Shown: positions 1 to 26,171 of the stretch, piece by piece
Position numbering within the stretch: position 1 is the first letter of the stretch
Layout: each line of letters opens with the position of its first letter
Origin: a virus
Taxonomy: Duplodnaviria; Heunggongvirae; Uroviricota; Caudoviricetes
Strand: one strand, 5' to 3'
Virus record (IMG/VR): IMGVR_UViG_2690316269_000009
Span: 1-26,403 of that record
DNA: 26,403 nt
Position numbers and translations under genes: made by a program
Notes under the pieces: model-generated
What the model was told of the DNA's origin: nothing
The model's input: only the letters and a program-made list of their open reading frames with translations
Database searches by the model: none

Positions 1-98
1 CCGTATGGCTGCCAGCCCTCTTTCAGTTTGTGTGTCAGCTTTTCCGCAAGGTCTGACGGCGACGCCGCCCTGACAACATCATAATGTTTAATCGACAT
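1..98 (-). CDS. Phage protein, N-terminal 32 codons only (gene runs off left edge); begins MSIKHYDVVRAASPSDLAEKL
   Basis: ATG at 96-98 on minus strand preceded by GGGAGA Shine-Dalgarno (rc of about 105-110); open to window edge. Resembles small lambdoid late-region proteins from memory only. Confidence 0.45.
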   Translation of the reverse strand, partial: MSIKHYDVVRAASPSDLAEKLTHKLKEGWQPY

Positions 99-184
99 CG
101 AATTTCTCCCGTGTAGAGGAACAGAGTTAAAAAGCCGGAAGCGGAATCAAATCACAGGATGACCATCTGCCAGTGGCTGGTCGT

Positions 185-213
185 AAAAAAAAAGCCGCGC
201 CATGCGCAGCCGA
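185..213 (-). terminator. Rho-independent terminator (minus strand)
   Basis: GC-rich hairpin (rc of gccgcgccatgcgcagcc, about 7 bp stem, 3 nt loop) followed on minus strand by a run of 9 T (plus-strand A-run 185-193). Confidence 0.45.
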
Positions 214-412
214 AAATAAAGGGATAACGATGATAGTTTGAGAAAAACAGAAATAACACTTTTGTGGCAAAGCATGGTGCCGGGTGCCTCCCGGTGAATT
301 CAGTATCAGCACCTGAATCCGCGATTACCCCATATTCCTTCTTGCTGATTGCCCCACCGCACAGGGGGATTCACCATGCAGAAGTGTTTTTAATAAACAG
401 CAAACAAAAAAA

Positions 413-580
413 TCAAGCATTATGCAGGCTGTTTCTTTTTATCACCGGCCACAGCAATACCATAATGCCGCAGACCAGCACCCCATCCGCCAGCACCGAC
501 ATGATTCTGCTGGTGAAATCCACCATCACCACCAGAAACAGCAGGAGTGCAGCCACAGCCAGGCGCAGTTTTACCGTCAC
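413..580 (-). CDS. Small hydrophobic membrane protein (about 55 aa, GTG start) translationally coupled to the upstream TerB-like ORF
   Basis: Minus-strand frame reads VTVKLRLAVAALLLFLVVMVDFTSRIMSVLADGVLVCGIMVLLWPVIKRNSLHNA; GTG overlaps the TGA of the upstream frame (cTGTGA); GGAGA about 8 nt upstream. Confidence 0.4.
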   Translation of the reverse strand: MTVKLRLAVAALLLFLVVMVDFTSRIMSVLADGVLVCGIMVLLWPVIKRNSLHNA

Positions 581-969
581 AGGTGATTCTCCAGACGAAG
601 ACCCAGAACACCGGCAATCTCTTCCAGCACCTTGCGCTCTTCCGGCTCAATTTCGCCGTCTGCCTCCGCAATGGCCACCGCCACATCCAGCACATCTTCC
701 GCTTCACGCGTATCGTGTTTCACATCCTCGATCTCACGTAACGCCGCACGACGACCAGTTTTAAAGTTCGTATCCAGCTGACCGATAATGGTTGCGCTAA
801 TCGCATTAATTTCTGACGTAAACGCGGACAGCGCAGGCTGATTACGCAGTACCTGTTCGATCTTCGCTTTCTAGGAAGCCTCACATTCACCATCTGCACA
901 GGCCACCAGGTAGGCAGCATTAATAACCGCCTGTGCCAGATCGCGTTTCTCAAACTTTCCTTTTTCCGG
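577..969 (-). pseudogene. TerB-like (tellurite-resistance TerB / DjlA N-terminal fold) ORF interrupted by in-frame TAA (970-972) and TAG (871-873); no ATG in the intact segment
   Basis: Minus-strand frame translates ...PEKGKFEKRDLAQAVINAAYLVACADGECEAS*KAKIEQVLRNQPALSAFTSEINAISATIIGQLDTNFKTGRRAALREIEDVKHDTREAEDVLDVAVAIAEADGEIEPEERKVLEEIAGVLGLRLENHL*; the repeated A-x-ADGE-x-E motif is typical of the TerB fold. Confidence 0.45.
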
Positions 970-1063
970 TTAACGTGACACACCAATAACTCTTGTCGAA
1001 AAAGCCAGCAAGCTGAAAGACCGGTATTCACAACCACCAGCGCGTTTACTGTACTGGCGTGAT

Positions 1064-1090
1064 TTCAGTCATAAAAAAACCCGCCTGGCG
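1064..1090 (-). terminator. Rho-independent terminator downstream of Q (candidate tR'-like site)
   Basis: Minus strand reads cacccgtcgccaggcgggttttttt: about 6 bp stem (one G-U), 4 nt loop, T7 tail; roughly 90-110 bp past the Q stop. Confidence 0.4.
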
Positions 1091-1176
1091 ACGGGTGTAA
1101 AAAATCTTCTAACGTCAGGCATAAAACGCCCATCGTTAGGGCAAATTTACCACAGATTCGGGAAAAATCAACAAAG

Positions 1177-1998
1177 CTATCTGGTCACCTTTTTCAGTTG
1201 TTGTTCTGCCCATGCTTCTTCAATATCAAACTGCACCACCAGCGTATCGTAAAAACGTTTAACTGTTTTTTTCCATGTATCAAGAGATATGGCATCGGTT
1301 ACATTACATATGGCATTAAATGCCTCCGTTGAAGGTAATCTTTCATAGCCACGACCACCACAACGCTGGCAGTCTCTGATAACAGGCATACCACGTTTTA
1401 CCGACTCTTCACGATGAATGGCAACACCGCGCCCACGACAATCTTTACAGGCAGTGGATACCTCTCCCTTCCCTCCACACTCCGGACAGGCAACTTTTAC
1501 CACCTCCCTGACTTTTTTCCATTCCTCCCAGTAAGACGGATACACGCCTTTTGTGCACTTTGCCCACACTGGCGGCTTACCATCCGGATACTGGATCTTG
1601 TTTGTAAAAACCTCGCTTTCAATAAATTTTTTTCCGTGACAACAGGGGCACTGTTTTTTGCTCGCCGCGCTACGGGCATAATCTTCAAACGCATACGAAG
1701 CCATAATACGCATCACTGCCGGTTTTATTTCTGCCGGGAGTTTTCTTAACGCCGCCACGCGATCACACCGACTGAGTGCATATTCTGTCAGCAATTCTGT
1801 TGCCCGCTCTCTGTCATTCATACTAATGCCCATTTTCCCAAGGAACGCAGAAAACCCCATCTCAGCCCAATTCTGTGTCATGCCCTGCGCGGCCATCACA
1901 TCAGTGATACTCAGCGTATCTTTCGACGTTGAGGCCGATGCATCAGTCAGGCCGGGGGATTTTGGGGAGTAGTATTTCGGTAAATCTTCCAGTTTCAT
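1177..1998 (-). CDS. Phage late-gene antitermination protein Q (Phage_antitermQ-like, 273 aa)
   Basis: ORF with Cys-rich zinc-binding motifs (CPCCHGKK, CPECGGKG, CKDCRGRG, CQRCGGRG); sits directly downstream of rusA with ATGA stop/start overlap, as in lambdoid nin-Q regions. Confidence 0.75.
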   Translation of the reverse strand: MKLEDLPKYYSPKSPGLTDASASTSKDTLSITDVMAAQGMTQNWAEMGFSAFLGKMGISMNDRERATELLTEYALSRCDRVAALRKLPAEIKPAVMRIMASYAFEDYARSAASKKQCPCCHGKKFIESEVFTNKIQYPDGKPPVWAKCTKGVYPSYWEEWKKVREVVKVACPECGGKGEVSTACKDCRGRGVAIHREESVKRGMPVIRDCQRCGGRGYERLPSTEAFNAICNVTDAISLDTWKKTVKRFYDTLVVQFDIEEAWAEQQLKKVTR

Positions 1999-2369
1999 TT
2001 TTTGACCTGCCCTTCAAGCATTATGGGGTAAATTTTCACCCCCAGACGTCCACCAGATACTGGCTGAGCACGAACGATATTGATTTCATCAAACTGCTCA
2101 TCGTCCATTAGCAACCCCGCATGCGTCAGCGCATCCAGCGGCGCTTTCAGAATATTGTCCAGGTCACGGCGACGCTTATCCGGTGGCTCGGCAATAATCT
2201 TTATCGCCAGCCTTCCGGACAGGCTTAATTTCAGCCGCTGCTGGCGAACAATAAGCGCCACAGCCCGGCGATAACGCTCACCGGCTTTTGATACAAAATA
2301 TGTGCTGCCACGACGTCGCCAGTAGGTGTTCACCGTCGGCGGGTAAAGCAAAACAAACTCTATACGCAT
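1995..2369 (-). CDS. rusA: Crossover junction endodeoxyribonuclease RusA (Holliday junction resolvase)
   Basis: 124 aa; motif PPDKRRRDLDNILKAPLDALTHAGLLMDDEQ matches the recalled RusA core (RRRDLDN...DAL...DD). Confidence 0.8.
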   Translation of the reverse strand: MRIEFVLLYPPTVNTYWRRRGSTYFVSKAGERYRRAVALIVRQQRLKLSLSGRLAIKIIAEPPDKRRRDLDNILKAPLDALTHAGLLMDDEQFDEINIVRAQPVSGGRLGVKIYPIMLEGQVKK

Positions 2370-2381
2370 CAGTAACCTCTT

Positions 2382-3431
2382 TTACCCGAGCACGCCGGTT
2401 GCAAAGGCGTGATCAAGAAAACGAAAAATTAAATCAACCTGGGAACCATGCTTTTCTTCGAACGCCAGCGGATCCGCATGAAGCTCGTTGTGATGCTCCC
2501 GACACAGCGGTAGCGTGAAAATATCGTGGGATTTTGTTCCCATTCCGCCCTGACCATGACCAATCAGATGATGAGGATCGTCCGCTGGCTTACCACAACA
2601 CGCACACGGCTGTGTCTTTACCCAGCGTGTGTATTTCTCATTTACCCAGCGGCGACGTTTAGGTCGTTTCATGAAGGATTCCGGAGACTCCGGATCAACG
2701 GCAATGCTGACCACCGTCTTTTCCTGTGGTGGGTTCTGTTGCTGGTGGGTGTGAGGCGGTAGCGCAATATTTTTTGTGCGCTGCTTCAGTATGCTGGTGG
2801 CGGTCTGCTCTCCCGGCACGATGTCGCTTTCACGGTACATTGAGCGGATTTTTTCCGCACGCCCCCCCAGCGAACGACGTAATACCGCTTCCGGTAGCGC
2901 GTCCGCCACCTGATTGCGGACCGCCCACCAGGATAATTCAGCCAAAGATAATTCACGCTCCTGCGTACCGCTTATTGCGTGACCGATGACGTCAATCATC
3001 CATGCTGACAGGTTTTGATGAGCAAGTTGCTCGAGTGATTCGGATGTCTGGTCACGCAGCTGGTTGTCGCAGTGCCAGCACAACACCATTGCGCCGGTAC
3101 CATAACGGTGAATGACAGTTTCGCTGTGATGATAATCGCCGTGTGGCCACTGGCAGGATTTAATATGGCGCAACAGCCAGTCAGACAATGCACCAGCACC
3201 ACCAGCAGCACGAATCACCCGTGCGTTACTGAAAAACGGCAGCAATGTTTTGTCTTCCACCAGCGGCTGGCGAACGGCAGGAACGACCCCGGACGGCAGA
3301 TTACGCATGCTTTTCGGTTCCGGCTCCATCAATACCCGGGTATTGTGGAATACTGGCATGGATTCACGGCCCGGCTTAACGATCACCAGCCCGAGTTCCG
3401 GTACCAGAACAGGTCGAAGTAATACCCGCAC
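2382..3431 (-). CDS. ydfU: DUF968 family prophage protein (YdfU-like), start codon uncertain (GTG at 3431 or internal ATG)
   Basis: 349-codon ORF; C-terminal Cys/His cluster (CACCGKPADDPHHLIGHGQGG...CREHHNELH); position between rem/hok and rusA matches Qin-type order. Confidence 0.65.
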   Translation of the reverse strand: MRVLLRPVLVPELGLVIVKPGRESMPVFHNTRVLMEPEPKSMRNLPSGVVPAVRQPLVEDKTLLPFFSNARVIRAAGGAGALSDWLLRHIKSCQWPHGDYHHSETVIHRYGTGAMVLCWHCDNQLRDQTSESLEQLAHQNLSAWMIDVIGHAISGTQERELSLAELSWWAVRNQVADALPEAVLRRSLGGRAEKIRSMYRESDIVPGEQTATSILKQRTKNIALPPHTHQQQNPPQEKTVVSIAVDPESPESFMKRPKRRRWVNEKYTRWVKTQPCACCGKPADDPHHLIGHGQGGMGTKSHDIFTLPLCREHHNELHADPLAFEEKHGSQVDLIFRFLDHAFATGVLG

Positions 3432-3432
3432 G

Positions 3433-3711
3433 TTACCTCCAGATGCGTTGCTGGAATGTGCGAGACGGACGCGGTGGGCGTTCAGAGTAAGGAAGCCTGA
3501 CGGAGATTATCCAGTGACGGTAGTCGAGACTAAGGGCTTTCTTAACCTCGTATCCGCGCCTGCGGTAACACTGAATTGTCCATTCAGCCTGCTCTTCAGT
3601 ACATGGAGGGTGTTGGAACCATTCAGACTTGAATGCGTGAGAATACCGCTCGTGCGTGCAGGCAAGAACGGGCGAATTATCAGAATTGTAATATTTTACG
3701 TTGCGTGCCAT
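3433..3711 (-). CDS. Hypothetical small prophage protein (92 aa)
   Basis: ORF MARNVKYYNSDNSPVLACTHERYSHAFKSEWFQHPPCTEEQAEWTIQCYRRRGY...; stop abuts the start of the DUF968 gene. Family not recognised. Confidence 0.45.
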   Translation of the reverse strand: MARNVKYYNSDNSPVLACTHERYSHAFKSEWFQHPPCTEEQAEWTIQCYRRRGYEVKKALSLDYRHWIISVRLPYSERPPRPSRTFQQRIWR

Positions 3712-3777
3712 CGGTTTTCTCCGGTGGCACGGTGTTACTCAGCGGGAGTTCAGCCCCGCGCAAGATTGTAGATGAGT

Positions 3778-4029
3778 TTATTCTTCTGCAAAAGCTGAAA
3801 AGCCTGCTTTTATTCCGATCTCTTTCAGTGCCTGTAATGAAGTGACAAACTCACCTTCGCGCAAGATAAATCCGTCTGTCACTCGACCATCCACAAAATT
3901 AATTAACGCAGCCCCATTCTTTCGCAAACACATAATGCGGTAATGACTAACAAGATTTCCATTTTCAACGCACACAGCATAGAGGCCATCTTCACAAAAA
4001 ATTTTACGCAGTTCTTCGATGTTCATCAT
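3778..4029 (-). CDS. rem: Rem-like small prophage protein (83 aa)
   Basis: ORF MMNIEELRKIFCEDGLYAVCVENGNLVSHYRIMCLRKNGAALINFVDGRVTDGFILREGEFVTSLQALKEIGIKAGFSAFAEE; lies between hok and ydfU-like as in Qin. Confidence 0.55.
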   Translation of the reverse strand: MMNIEELRKIFCEDGLYAVCVENGNLVSHYRIMCLRKNGAALINFVDGRVTDGFILREGEFVTSLQALKEIGIKAGFSAFAEE

Positions 4030-4145
4030 CAGAATCCTTCCGGATAATTAGCTCTCCCCTTTAAGGGACCATCCCTCTTATCCCTGCGCGCTACTTAAGT
4101 ATTTTTGATTCTATTCCGGCGCCGTCCAGAACTTCAAACGCGTTG

Positions 4146-4177
4146 AAAATAAAAACAAAAACCCGCCGAAGCGGGTT
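4146..4177 (-). terminator. Rho-independent terminator (minus strand), likely 3' end of the hok transcript
   Basis: Minus strand reads acccgcttcggcgggtttttgtttttatttt: GC stem with tetraloop then T-rich tail, about 70 bp downstream of hok stop. Confidence 0.55.
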
Positions 4178-4245
4178 AAGTGCGGGTGCGTTGAGGATGC
4201 CTGCCACATCAGAGGTGGCGAGGGATTTCTCCCTCGCCGGGTCTC

Positions 4246-4401
4246 TTACTCCTCAGGTTCGTAAGCTGTGAAGACAGCGACCTCCGTCTGGCCGGTTCGG
4301 ATTCGTACCTCGCAGAGGTCTTTCCTCGTTACCAGTGTCGTCACTATGACGGTTAAACAGATGACGATCAGGGCGATTAACATCGCCTTTTGCTGCTTCA
4401 T
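4246..4401 (-). CDS. hokD: Hok-family type I toxin (HokD/RelF-like, 51 aa)
   Basis: MKQQKAMLIALIVICLTVIVTTLVTRKDLCEVRIRTGQTEVAVFTAYEPEE: single TM helix plus conserved C-terminus; an in-frame upstream extension to 4458 (MLDTCRLASYVPEGKEKQA) may be the mok-like leader. Confidence 0.8.
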   Translation of the reverse strand: MKQQKAMLIALIVICLTVIVTTLVTRKDLCEVRIRTGQTEVAVFTAYEPEE

Positions 4402-4714
4402 AGCCTGCTTCTCCTTGCCTTCCGGCACGTAAGAGGCTAACCTACATGTGTCTAGCATGAAATTGGCCTCAGATTAATGTTAAGCGTCTTGCAGGACGCG
4501 TAATGTTAACTGGGGCTTTTCTCTATCTGCCTTTGGTGTTCATGCCTGAGACAGATAGCCTCAAGCACCCGCAGCCATTCTACTTAACTCCCGTTACCCC
4601 GCCAATATGAAATCAGTCAGAAAGGCGATCCATAAGAATAATGAATTCTGTAAGGCAATAGTCTCACTGTCTAACATATCTTACCTGATTACTTTACAAT
4701 ATAATAATTCATAG

Positions 4715-5350
4715 TTAAATCAAATGAATGTCATCATCCAATAATTCATTAGTAGTAATACTACCTTTTTTGAAAAAATTTTCATTTGCCTCAGCAATTT
4801 TTGCATCATTAACAAATTCATCACACATCCCAAAATAATGAAAAAATCTATTTAGTTTACATATTCCAATGGTATAGTGCCCTTTAGGTGTTTTGTCCAC
4901 ATAAACACGATTTGCTTTTATAATATGCATCTCATAATCATCTATATGTGGATGAACGATGCGAAATGATGCAGATGCAGTTGGATAGTTTTTGCGCCGC
5001 CCCCCATTTATTACGGGTTCAAATAACACTTCATTTTTACCTTTGAATTCATTGCAGTCAGGACATACTACACATAGATTCTTAGGTTCAAAAATAAAAC
5101 ATAGATATTGAGATTTTGGCACAATATGCTCTATAGGAGCAGCTTGTGCAGCTCTTACCCCAATAGGCTCATGACAATATACACATTCTAGCTTTTGTTC
5201 TTCTCTGTAATGATTTCTAATTTCTGCACGGAGAACTTGCAAATCATCATCTCCCCAGTTGGTATGCTTAAAATCTGGAGAAGACAATTTTTTCTCAATA
5301 ATATCTAATGACTCTGCGCTGAATCTAATTGGATTTTTAATTTTTGGCAT
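4715..5350 (-). CDS. ptuB: HNH endonuclease, Septu PtuB-like (about 211 aa from ATG at 5350; alternative GTG at 5359)
   Basis: HNH signature CVYCHEP...IEHIVPKSQ...NLCVVCPDCNEFKG; start overlaps the 3' end of the upstream ATPase gene (operon coupling). Confidence 0.7.
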   Translation of the reverse strand: MPKIKNPIRFSAESLDIIEKKLSSPDFKHTNWGDDDLQVLRAEIRNHYREEQKLECVYCHEPIGVRAAQAAPIEHIVPKSQYLCFIFEPKNLCVVCPDCNEFKGKNEVLFEPVINGGRRKNYPTASASFRIVHPHIDDYEMHIIKANRVYVDKTPKGHYTIGICKLNRFFHYFGMCDEFVNDAKIAEANENFFKKGSITTNELLDDDIHLI

Positions 5351-6710
5351 AAATTTCACACACCTGAGATACGGAATTTACGAGTTCATTAATAGGGTCA
5401 TTACTATTAACGTTTTCAAGGAGAAGCTGGAGTTGTTTTAATTCACGCCAATTATCATCTGTTACTAACTTAGCAGTCTTAACTTTTGAAAGTAAATTGA
5501 AAGCTAATCTGGCAATGTATTCATTCATAATGCCAGGGGCATCAAATAGTTCCGCAAGTTGATAGTCTGCAGACCGGTTGCTAAAGTATTTTGCTTTATA
5601 AAGATAACTTTTCGACAAAGATGTTATATAACAACCTTTATTCGGCAAATTGGATATTATTTGTGGTGAATGAGTTGCAATTATGAATTGACAACCTGAG
5701 TAAGTTAAAAATGCTTTTGTTAACATAATGATAAACTCTTCCTGCCATCGAGGATGCAAGCTTATTTCCGGTTCATCAATTAGTATTATAGAACCATCAG
5801 TTATATGCCCTGCAATTCCAAGCAACATCACTAATAAACATTGTTCTCCCGAGCTCGCACGTTTAAGTGACATGGGACCATAGCTTTTTTTTATGAGTCG
5901 CATATCCATCAATCTCATGAAGCCAGCGTTCATAAGTTTAAGAATTGATCTAGAAAAATAATTATTCGCATAAGTCGAGCCAACCAATGTTTCACCATTG
6001 GTAAAATCGACTGACAAGGTTACAGCCCTACGTTCAGGTTCAAATCGATTAATTTCAACCAGTGCTTCGTAAATATCATGACGTGATTCGGAGTTTAACT
6101 TTAAGAGACTCTCAATATTCTTCCTGTCAATTTTTATATTGTATTTTAAATATAACTCCTTAACTTCCGTTAATATCTCATCTGAATATACACCAATGAA
6201 GTTATAGTCAGGAGTGTCCGGTCCGTTGTAAGTTGGTTTAAATACAAACTCTATATGGGGCTCAAAATCAATAGAATGAAAAACATCGAGTAAATTTGCA
6301 GGATTTTCTGAATAAGCAAGTTTCTCTAGCCAACCTCTCGCTGCTGAAGATAAAAGGGATACGGCATTTGATACGCCGAAGGGGCCTTCTCCACGCATAC
6401 CCACATAGCGATAATTATTTTCTTTCCTTTGGTGATTTAATGACCTACGCCCTGGAGGGAATTTATCGAATGGGCTGGTAGATACGGCAATTAACTTTGG
6501 TGTTATTTCTCTGTCAAATAATGGATTAAAAGTTTTCAAGAAATGAATATCTTGAATACAGTCTTTAGCAATCTGAGATAACAATCTGCTTTTTCCAACG
6601 CCATTTTTACCTACAATTACTGTAAAAATATTCGCATTATCAGAAACATCACCTTCTATAGCAAGTTTTAAGGTTCGACTATCATGATGGGTATAATATA
6701 GTCTTTTCAT
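5337..6710 (-). CDS. ptuA: AAA15/ABC-type ATPase, Septu PtuA-like (457 aa)
   Basis: Walker A VIVGKNGVGKS near N-terminus, long insertion, ABC signature-like LKRASSGEQ, Walker B ILIDEPEISLH, H-loop IIATHSPQI; ATG at 6708-6710. Confidence 0.7.
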   Translation of the reverse strand: MKRLYYTHHDSRTLKLAIEGDVSDNANIFTVIVGKNGVGKSRLLSQIAKDCIQDIHFLKTFNPLFDREITPKLIAVSTSPFDKFPPGRRSLNHQRKENNYRYVGMRGEGPFGVSNAVSLLSSAARGWLEKLAYSENPANLLDVFHSIDFEPHIEFVFKPTYNGPDTPDYNFIGVYSDEILTEVKELYLKYNIKIDRKNIESLLKLNSESRHDIYEALVEINRFEPERRAVTLSVDFTNGETLVGSTYANNYFSRSILKLMNAGFMRLMDMRLIKKSYGPMSLKRASSGEQCLLVMLLGIAGHITDGSIILIDEPEISLHPRWQEEFIIMLTKAFLTYSGCQFIIATHSPQIISNLPNKGCYITSLSKSYLYKAKYFSNRSADYQLAELFDAPGIMNEYIARLAFNLLSKVKTAKLVTDDNWRELKQLQLLLENVNSNDPINELVNSVSQVCEIYAKN

Positions 6711-13117: not shown

Positions 13118-13175
13118 TTTCTGGTGACGTTTGGCGGTATCAGTTTTACTCCGTGACTGCTCTGCCGCCCTTTTT
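13118..13175 (+). ncRNA. dicF: DicF small regulatory RNA (ftsZ-targeting sRNA of dic-type prophages)
   Basis: tttctggtgacgtttggcggtatcagttttactccgtgactgctctgccgccc + ttttt matches the DicF sequence as recalled, including terminal GGCGG/CCGCC hairpin and U-tail; sits upstream of dicB. Confidence 0.7.
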
Positions 13176-17624: not shown

Positions 17625-17714
17625 TGGCGGAGAGAGGGGGATTTGAACCCCCGGTGGAGTTGCCCCCACTCCGGTTTTCGAGACCGGTCCGTTCAGCCGC
17701 TCCGGCATCTCTCC
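17625..17714 (-). tRNA. serU: tRNA-Ser (anticodon CGA)
   Basis: Minus strand reads ggagagatgccggagcggctgaacggaccggtctcgaaaaccggagtgggggcaactccaccgggggttcaaatccccctctctccgcca: cloverleaf with long variable arm, anticodon loop ctCGAaa, 3' CCA. Confidence 0.85.
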
Positions 17715-18705: not shown

Positions 18706-18781
18706 TCCTCTGTAGTTCAGTCGGTAGAACGGCGGACTGTTAATCCGTATGTCACTGGTTCGAGTCCAGTCAGAGGAGCCA
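18706..18781 (+). tRNA. asnT: tRNA-Asn (anticodon GUU)
   Basis: tcctctgtagttcagtcggtagaacggcggactGTTaatccgtatgtcactggttcgagtccagtcagaggagcca: canonical 76-nt tRNA with CCA. Confidence 0.9.
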
Positions 18782-18901: not shown

Positions 18902-19094
18902 GCTATGAACGCCATCACCATTTTCCCCTCGATTATAAAACTTGAGTTATTCAGTAGTCTCCCCTCTTGCAACTCACACTCAAAACTGCCTAACGAAAAG
19001 TTATTAATTTTCAATCATATTGCTATCAGGATTTACATTTTTTCGCTGTGCTAGAAAGGGCGCATTTATGTTAGCTCGTTCAGGGAAGGTAAGC

Positions 19095-26171
<7,077 letters not shown>

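Follow-up and report, generated by a model that had tools for sequence, protein, structure and literature searches.

A disrupted TerB-family gene, tciA, and its coupled partner tciB downstream of the late antiterminator gene Q in an Escherichia coli prophage

The window analyzed here is a 26,403-nucleotide stretch of an E. coli prophage (Caudoviricetes; IMG/VR record IMGVR_UViG_2690316269_000009, positions 1 to 26,403). At its left end, every gene lies on the minus strand. The order runs from the late antiterminator gene Q, labeled 'antitermination protein' by PGAP in identical DNA, through a leader, the remnant of a TerB-family gene (tciA), a small ORF (tciB), a small RNA gene and an intrinsic terminator into an esterase gene (Table 1). 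Only the first 32 codons of the esterase gene (98–3, minus strand) fall within the window. They match Pfam DUF1737 with an E-value of 1.6e-11, and PGAP annotates the gene as 'SASA family carbohydrate esterase' in identical DNA. The strong terminator previously predicted 3′ of the small ORF was recovered by the terminator scan and by folding, as the hairpin 211–193 on the minus strand. On the opposite strand (75–218, plus strand), antisense to the terminator and the beginning of the esterase gene, PGAP places a fragmentary 'hypothetical protein' pseudogene that is partial at either end and has an internal stop; it probably reflects an artefact of annotation.

Table 1. Features at the left end of the window, listed in the order of the minus strand.
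Feature	Position	Strand	Evidence
Late antiterminator Q, 273 aa	1177..1998	-	Pfam Antiterm PF03589, E 4.7e-50
Candidate late promoter pR′ with TAACGAT element after it	1144..1171	-	Sequence reading
Two leader hairpins, 1143-1127 and 1096-1079	1079..1143	-	Terminator scan and RNA fold
Q-downstream leader module, containing in-frame TAA 970-972	956..1100	-	Similarity to Stx2 phages
Recombination junction, leader / tciA codon 18/19	956..958	-	Three-way alignment and BLAST end-points 958 and 956
tciA pseudogene (TerB family), codons 19-143 and stop codon	577..955	-	Pfam TerB, homologues, PGAP
Nonsense codon TAG for GAG (Glu46)	871..873	-	Intact homologues, DNA alignment
tciB-like ORF (DUF3927), 55 aa	413..580	-	Pfam, PHROG 1470, P1 TciB similarity
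STnc100/PasD-family prophage sRNA gene	236..408	-	Rfam RF02076
Intrinsic terminator, 8-bp stem and T9 run	193..211	-	Terminator scan; fold -12.9 kcal/mol, z = -2.2
NanS-p-type (SASA family) sialate O-acetylesterase, 5′ end	1..98	-	DUF1737 Pfam; window edge cuts gene

The tciA frame ends at TGA 579–577 (minus strand) and contains two in-frame stops, TAG 873–871 and TAA 972–970. Its conceptual translation matches the Pfam TerB family (PF05099) with 42.5 bits and an E-value of 9.5e-11, against a cut-off of 24.4 bits. The match runs across the TAG and covers protein residues 13–125 and profile positions 2–109 of 118. A search of 5.8 billion proteins yielded 145 homologues, of which the intact members consist of 142–144 residues, are read in the same frame and are 96–98% identical in E. 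coli. One intact relative (P0006) scores 60.7 bits on Pfam TerB, matches PHROG 632 ('tellurite resistance') over positions 1–143 of 143 (E 7e-70) and aligns with the solved TerB structure 2JXU over residues 14–137 (E 2e-7). Thus, with a Pfam match above the cut-off and intact homologues that use this very frame and not another, the original prediction of a TerB-fold reading frame stands. The window copy covers only residues 19–143 of a TciA-type protein (PHROG 632, ∼143 residues); it retains the Pfam domain but not an uninterrupted, translatable ORF, and is a remnant of a PHROG 632 member, not a functional member. Among NCBIfam profiles, only sub-threshold matches to tciA were obtained (DjlA, 25 bits versus 162; YmfL), and the defence models of PADLOC-DB 2.0 gave no credible match, the nearest being a marginal alignment of 35 residues to PDC-S48 (E 0.0028, 14.8 bits).

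The small ORF that follows is a member of the DUF3927/TciB family by score, by its length of ∼55 residues, by its two hydrophobic segments and by the overlap of its start with the preceding gene. It scores 60 bits against Pfam DUF3927 (PF13064; gathering score 25), for which P1 TciB itself scores 106 bits, matches PHROG 1470 'TciB-like' with an E-value of 1.3e-29 and is 51% identical to P1 TciB. The hydropathy peaks fall at residues 7–21 and 29–47. The GTG start overlaps the tciA stop (GTGA) and is preceded, 8 nt upstream, by a GGAG of its own. PGAP annotates the same interval, 413–580, as a 'DUF3927 family protein' (WP_000216632.1). The coupled, small hydrophobic ORF described earlier at this position is thereby borne out and can be assigned to a family. 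As tciB is full length and has its own Shine-Dalgarno sequence, the term 'dead module' may overstate the case for this gene. Neither NCBIfam nor PADLOC-DB 2.0 contains a match for it.

Three further candidates in this interval were rejected. A holin assignment for tciB is at odds with Pfam and PHROG, which give DUF3927/TciB and no holin family, and a class II holin is annotated further downstream. A 31-residue ORF (325–420) that overlaps the tciB stop was inspected as a counterpart of tciC, and its translation resembles neither P1 TciC nor the 34-residue ORF of phage LMessi. A plus-strand ORF of 166 residues (264–764), antisense to tciB and tciA, is low-complexity, proline-rich and without support, and was treated as spurious. 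In Pseudomonas phage AF, an unannotated ORF of 73 residues with one hydrophobic segment overlaps the stop of the TerB gene (locus L187, 1932–2153, plus strand). It is not a DUF3927 protein, and it hints that, in this subfamily, a TerB gene generally has a small membrane protein coupled to it.

The two in-frame stops of tciA differ in nature. TAG 871–873 replaces GAG, the codon for Glu46 of the intact 143-residue protein, in both the protein and the DNA alignments; intact homologues read ...LVAYADGECEAS-E-KAKIEQVL..., in the context ...ECEASEKAKIE.... It is a genuine nonsense mutation. At the 5′ end, BLAST homology to intact tciA stops at window position 958 (JLK-2012, 93.6%; PPyecE, 90.3%; Evi, 91.3%), and window 1100–956 is homologous instead to the Q-downstream leader of Stx2 phages. 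Across the junction (marked by a slash) the window reads ...ACCGGAAAAAGGAAA/GTTTGAG, compared with ...AGCGGAAATTAAAAA/GTTTGAG in intact tciA (5′ end of Evi) and ...ACCGGAAAAGGGAAA/AAGACATG on the leader side (Stx2_EH1910). The two sequences cross over at a short A-rich microhomology (CGGAAA...AAA); in the Stx phage, this point immediately precedes the ATG of another small ORF. Because homology to tciA stops at 958 and the leader extends from 956, the 5′ lesion is a truncation with replacement, rather than a second nonsense mutation, and TAA 970–972 lies in transplanted non-coding leader. The original prediction of two in-frame stops is, therefore, accurate as to frame and as to the TAG, but the TAA lies outside the TerB-homologous DNA.

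As a result of these two lesions, tciA has been inactivated twice, by the change of Glu46 from GAG to TAG and by replacement of its first 18 codons, start codon and ribosome-binding site with the leader. The disruption proposed earlier is real, and it is already annotated: PGAP labels the equivalent of 577–939 'tellurite resistance TerB family protein, pseudogene, internal stop' in one O157 strain and in two genomes with 801 nt identical to the window.

The leader resembles the start of a lambdoid late operon. A candidate pR′ on the minus strand (1171–1144) consists of TTGATT, a 16-nt spacer with TGn, and TAAATT; its score of 8/12 is below the threshold of the sigma-70 scan, which therefore did not report it. 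It resembles lambda pR′ and its sigma-dependent pause element, and we infer the pR′ assignment from the sequence itself. Taken as a whole, the region 1079–1171 combines a lambda-pR′-like −10 element (TAAATT, with TGn), the element TAACGAT and two hairpin terminators. The second hairpin (1096–1079) is adjoined by a T7 run and is tR′-like, and the RNA fold of 1150–1070 has an energy of −28 kcal/mol (z = −4.0). The leader (956–1180) is 99.6% identical to that of the Stx2a phage Stx2_EH1910 and 91% identical to that of Stx2_14040; in the Stx2 phages, this module leads into another small ORF, not into tciA. By position, the leader could give rise to a short, terminated RNA analogous to StxS, a 258-nt pR′ transcript linked to one particular Q lineage (PMC7547250). 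The analogy with StxS is one of position only: the leader is much shorter, and Rfam returns only sub-threshold noise there.

One feature missed in the original prediction lies directly after the tciB stop, before the terminator. The segment 408–236 matches the Rfam family STnc100 (RF02076) with 100.8 bits (gathering score 47) over model positions 1–206 of 206, and so belongs to this family by covariance-model score over the full model. Most of the model's 3′ hairpin is deleted in the alignment; given this deletion, the RNA may be a member of the related PasD branch. Zhu, Shabalina and Storz have described the STnc100/PasD prophage sRNAs; they relate PasD to STnc100 and report TerB (PF05099) as a conserved neighbour of the prophage Pas sRNAs, with the sialate esterase as a further documented neighbour (bioRxiv 10.64898/2026.05.13.724894). 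A promoter for the sRNA is not obvious, and it may be processed from the late transcript.

The position of this locus in the late operon can be read from E. coli CD45 (NZ_CP182220.1), which is 100% identical to window positions 1–6000. To the left of window position 1, CD45 carries the rest of the esterase gene, followed by genes for a class II holin, a lysozyme, an Rz-type lysis protein and terminase, with holin, lysozyme and Rz within ∼4.5 kb of the window's left end. The earlier observation that no holin or endolysin follows Q holds within the window, but it is an edge effect: the window begins inside the next gene, the esterase, and the lysis genes lie just outside it in CD45. The proposal that a TerB gene stands where the lysis cassette would be expected must be abandoned. 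Intact relatives (JLK-2012, PPyecE_EH1910, Evi and LMessi) keep the order Q, tRNAs or other morons in some, tciA, tciB, in some the esterase, then holin and endolysin. tciAB fills an ordinary cargo slot downstream of pR′/tR′ and replaces no lysis genes. The main use of this result is to avert a misreading, since the prophage has a lysis cassette and nothing unusual replaces it. The annotated neighbours (Q, RusA, DUF968, DUF3927, esterase, holin and lysozyme) include none of the ter operon partners TerC, TerD, TerZ, TerA or TerE.

A tblastn search of 50,697 phage records identified the TerB protein in 132 phages, including P1, P7, D6, lambdoid coliphages, and jumbo phages of Erwinia and Salmonella. 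Its pairing with DUF3927 recurs in P1, JLK-2012, PPyecE_EH1910, Evi, LMessi and the jumbo phage pSal-SNUABM-04. Since both partners match the P1 tci families and the pair recurs, we regard the locus as a copy of the tciA-tciB module. The pair was reportedly first named in phage P1. The window module and that of P1 have in common the two-gene architecture with its stop/start overlap, and both partners are assigned to the same families in Pfam and PHROG; over 143 residues, P1 TciA shares 42.7% identity with the intact relatives of the window copy. They differ in that the window tciA is 5′-truncated and carries the TAG, that a tciC counterpart is lacking, and that the window module is located in a lambdoid late operon downstream of Q, whereas that of P1 is beside tRNA genes and ban. 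In P1, tciA, tciB and tciC were non-essential in a CRISPRi screen (PMC10695390). The literature yielded no experimental function for TciA or TciB, and GenBank notes and later papers give the P1 name 'by homology' only.

The closest relatives are the intact lambdoid morons of Evi, JLK-2012 and PPyecE_EH1910, which are 90–95% identical to the window DNA over tciA from codon 19, tciB and the downstream region, and occupy the same slot between Q and the esterase/holin genes; Evi also shares the Q-rusA-DUF968 module. Unlike the window copy, tciA of these phages is complete (432 nt), begins with ATG and has GAG as codon 46, and what lies upstream is tRNA genes or other cargo, not a leader of the Stx-phage type fused to codon 19. 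The Pfam PF05099 domain is also common to TerB of terZABCDE (2JXU, Klebsiella pneumoniae), but the phage-borne subfamily is paired with DUF3927 and is not known to confer tellurite resistance. In its position, the locus is comparable to the stx slot of Stx-converting phages, where cargo is likewise inserted between Q/pR′/tR′ and the esterase and lysis genes. In Stx2_EH1910, the leader is followed by a methylase gene, tRNAs and stx2AB. The cargo of the window is instead a dead tciA with tciB, and there are no toxin genes or tRNAs in the slot.

The disrupted form is widespread. Of 5426 complete E. coli genomes, 482 contain the 61-mer that spans the junction. An exact 55-mer with the TAG at its centre occurs in 537 E. 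coli records; the search with this 55-mer gave 1815 matching places in 633 genomes (median 3 per genome). The TAG allele thus occurs in ∼10% of the complete genomes of E. coli. Among IMG/VR contigs that match a 35-mer apart from this codon, 88 have TAG and 90 have GAG or GAA. The tciA pseudogene has been spread by prophage recombination and is now in roughly one in ten sequenced E. coli, O157:H7, O26, O103 and O145 strains among them. No haplotype, with codon 46 masked, is common to the TAG and GAG alleles. TAG haplotypes of different 5′ classes are typically 1–2 nt apart, and the nearest GAG haplotype is 3–8 nt away, a pattern that fits one origin of the TAG followed by its spread.

The 178 IMG/VR loci were classified by their state of decay, and they form a clear stepwise series of nonsense mutation, 5′ replacement at a microhomology and loss of the partner gene. 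All 53 of the 5′-truncated copies carry the TAG, which is also found on 35 copies whose 5′ end is complete. Beside an in-frame, intact tciA, tciB has its full length in every one of 50 copies, and it is intact in all 29 scored copies that combine a full 5′ end with the TAG. Of 40 truncated copies, 21 have a broken tciB (a second method gives 23 of 48), the lesion being a nonsense codon at position 44 or one of several frameshifts. The nonsense codon, which cuts tciB to 43 residues, is seen in O157 strain FDAARGOS_293 (locus L002, 6070–6201) and in 14 IMG/VR loci. Because all truncated copies carry the TAG, the TAG also occurs on full 5′ ends and about half of the truncated copies have lost tciB, decay most likely began with the nonsense mutation, proceeded to 5′ truncation and ended with loss of tciB. 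The window copy, with tciA dead and tciB intact, is at the second, intermediate stage.

In intact, in-frame tciA, dN/dS is 0.026 (30 haplotypes), and the intact pair, widespread in phages, is strongly constrained. Within the TAG classes the ratio is 0.86 for copies with a full 5′ end and 0.19 for truncated copies, the latter with 41 synonymous versus 19 non-synonymous differences. Selection on the TAG classes is relaxed, though not cleanly neutral in the truncated class. The value of 0.19 is probably confounded by recombination: exchange with functional alleles, or polymorphism older than the inactivation, can account for the non-neutral pattern, and residual constraint on the truncated class may be an alternative source. 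A separate A6/A7 homopolymer polymorphism occurs at tciA codons 7–9 (IMG/VR loci L008–L185, for example L089 and L163). In the A7 form the ATG is out of frame and is rescued by a TTG four bases downstream, giving MVFLVKK... proteins that PGAP annotates as intact. As dN/dS of the A7 class is still low (0.077), consistent with purifying selection, we did not count this variant as a lesion.

Taken together, the locus is very probably an inactivated tciA-tciB accessory copy in the normal first-cargo slot of the late operon of a lambdoid E. coli prophage. The decaying moron downstream of Q that the original prediction proposed, with a disrupted TerB frame and a coupled membrane ORF, agrees with this reading, and the locus is an ordinary, known accessory gene in decay. 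We envisage that, upon antitermination by Q, the late transcript would pass the leader hairpins and cross the untranslated tciA remnant. tciB may still be translated from its own GGAG-N8-GTG, and the transcript would then carry the STnc100/PasD-type sRNA and continue into the esterase, holin and lysozyme genes. For the intact ancestor, we suggest very tentatively that a cytoplasmic TciA with a TerB fold might have worked at the inner membrane with the TciB hairpin. Such a pair might, equally tentatively, have provided a non-essential accessory function in envelope or membrane stress or in exclusion, distinct from the lysis machinery. The basis for this suggestion is the domain content, the translational coupling and the strong purifying selection.

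Other explanations of the disrupted frame were weighed against this reading. The idea that the stops arose in sequencing or assembly, and that the organism itself has an intact gene, has a vanishingly small chance of being correct. The homopolymer polymorphism in sister loci is of an error-prone type, but the TAG is a substitution and not a homopolymer indel. It recurs in 88 independent IMG/VR contigs and 537 complete-genome records, two complete genomes match the window exactly over 801 nt, and the junction is found in hundreds of complete genomes. It is also highly improbable that the interrupted tciA still yields a product, through readthrough or suppression of the amber codon or in the form of a C-terminal fragment, and that this product keeps a TerB-type activity together with TciB. 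The frequency of the TAG allele, the dN/dS of its truncated class below neutrality, and the intact tciB of the window and of all scored full-5′-end TAG copies speak in its favour. Readthrough, however, would have nothing to read, since this copy lacks a start codon and a ribosome-binding site ahead of the TAG, and the only tRNAs of the window, Ser(CGA) and Asn(GUU), are not suppressors. A 48-residue GTG-initiated ORF (577–723) would hold less than half of the TerB domain, and in sister copies tciB is subsequently lost through nonsense and frameshift mutations.

The full-length STnc100 match immediately 3′ of tciB, followed by a terminator, raises another explanation, namely that the DNA is kept for an RNA role, with the tciA remnant serving as spacer or 5′ precursor for the sRNA and tciB functioning on its own. 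The published association of TerB with prophage Pas sRNAs (bioRxiv 10.64898/2026.05.13.724894) and the separate GGAG-N8-GTG of tciB are in keeping with such a role. On the other hand, the sRNA is also found beside intact tciA-tciB, as homology to Evi continues downstream of tciB, which indicates that the pseudogene is not needed for it. Half of the truncated copies have a broken tciB, and hitch-hiking between highly recombinogenic modules explains the persistence of the segment without any function. We therefore consider an RNA role very unlikely. A bolder version would have a domesticated RNA and peptide module, comprising a stand-alone TciB and the sRNA precursor, maintained in ∼10% of E. 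coli and, separately, a new membrane-level exclusion or anti-defence function for intact TciA-TciB; this, too, we judge very unlikely. The context for the anti-defence or exclusion idea is that intact TciA-TciB is common to P1, lambdoid and jumbo phages.

Elsewhere in the window, Rfam identifies a sok antitoxin RNA (4396–4570, minus strand; 117 bits), which fits the hokD/sok type I toxin-antitoxin locus of related prophages, and, in the early region, the DicF sRNA (13119–13170, plus strand; 76.7 bits), a prophage cell-division inhibitor RNA. The genes for tRNA-Ser(CGA) (17625–17714, minus strand) and tRNA-Asn(GUU) (18706–18781, plus strand) may mark a prophage boundary or integration site. They are followed by an ORF of 2383 residues (19020–26171, plus strand).
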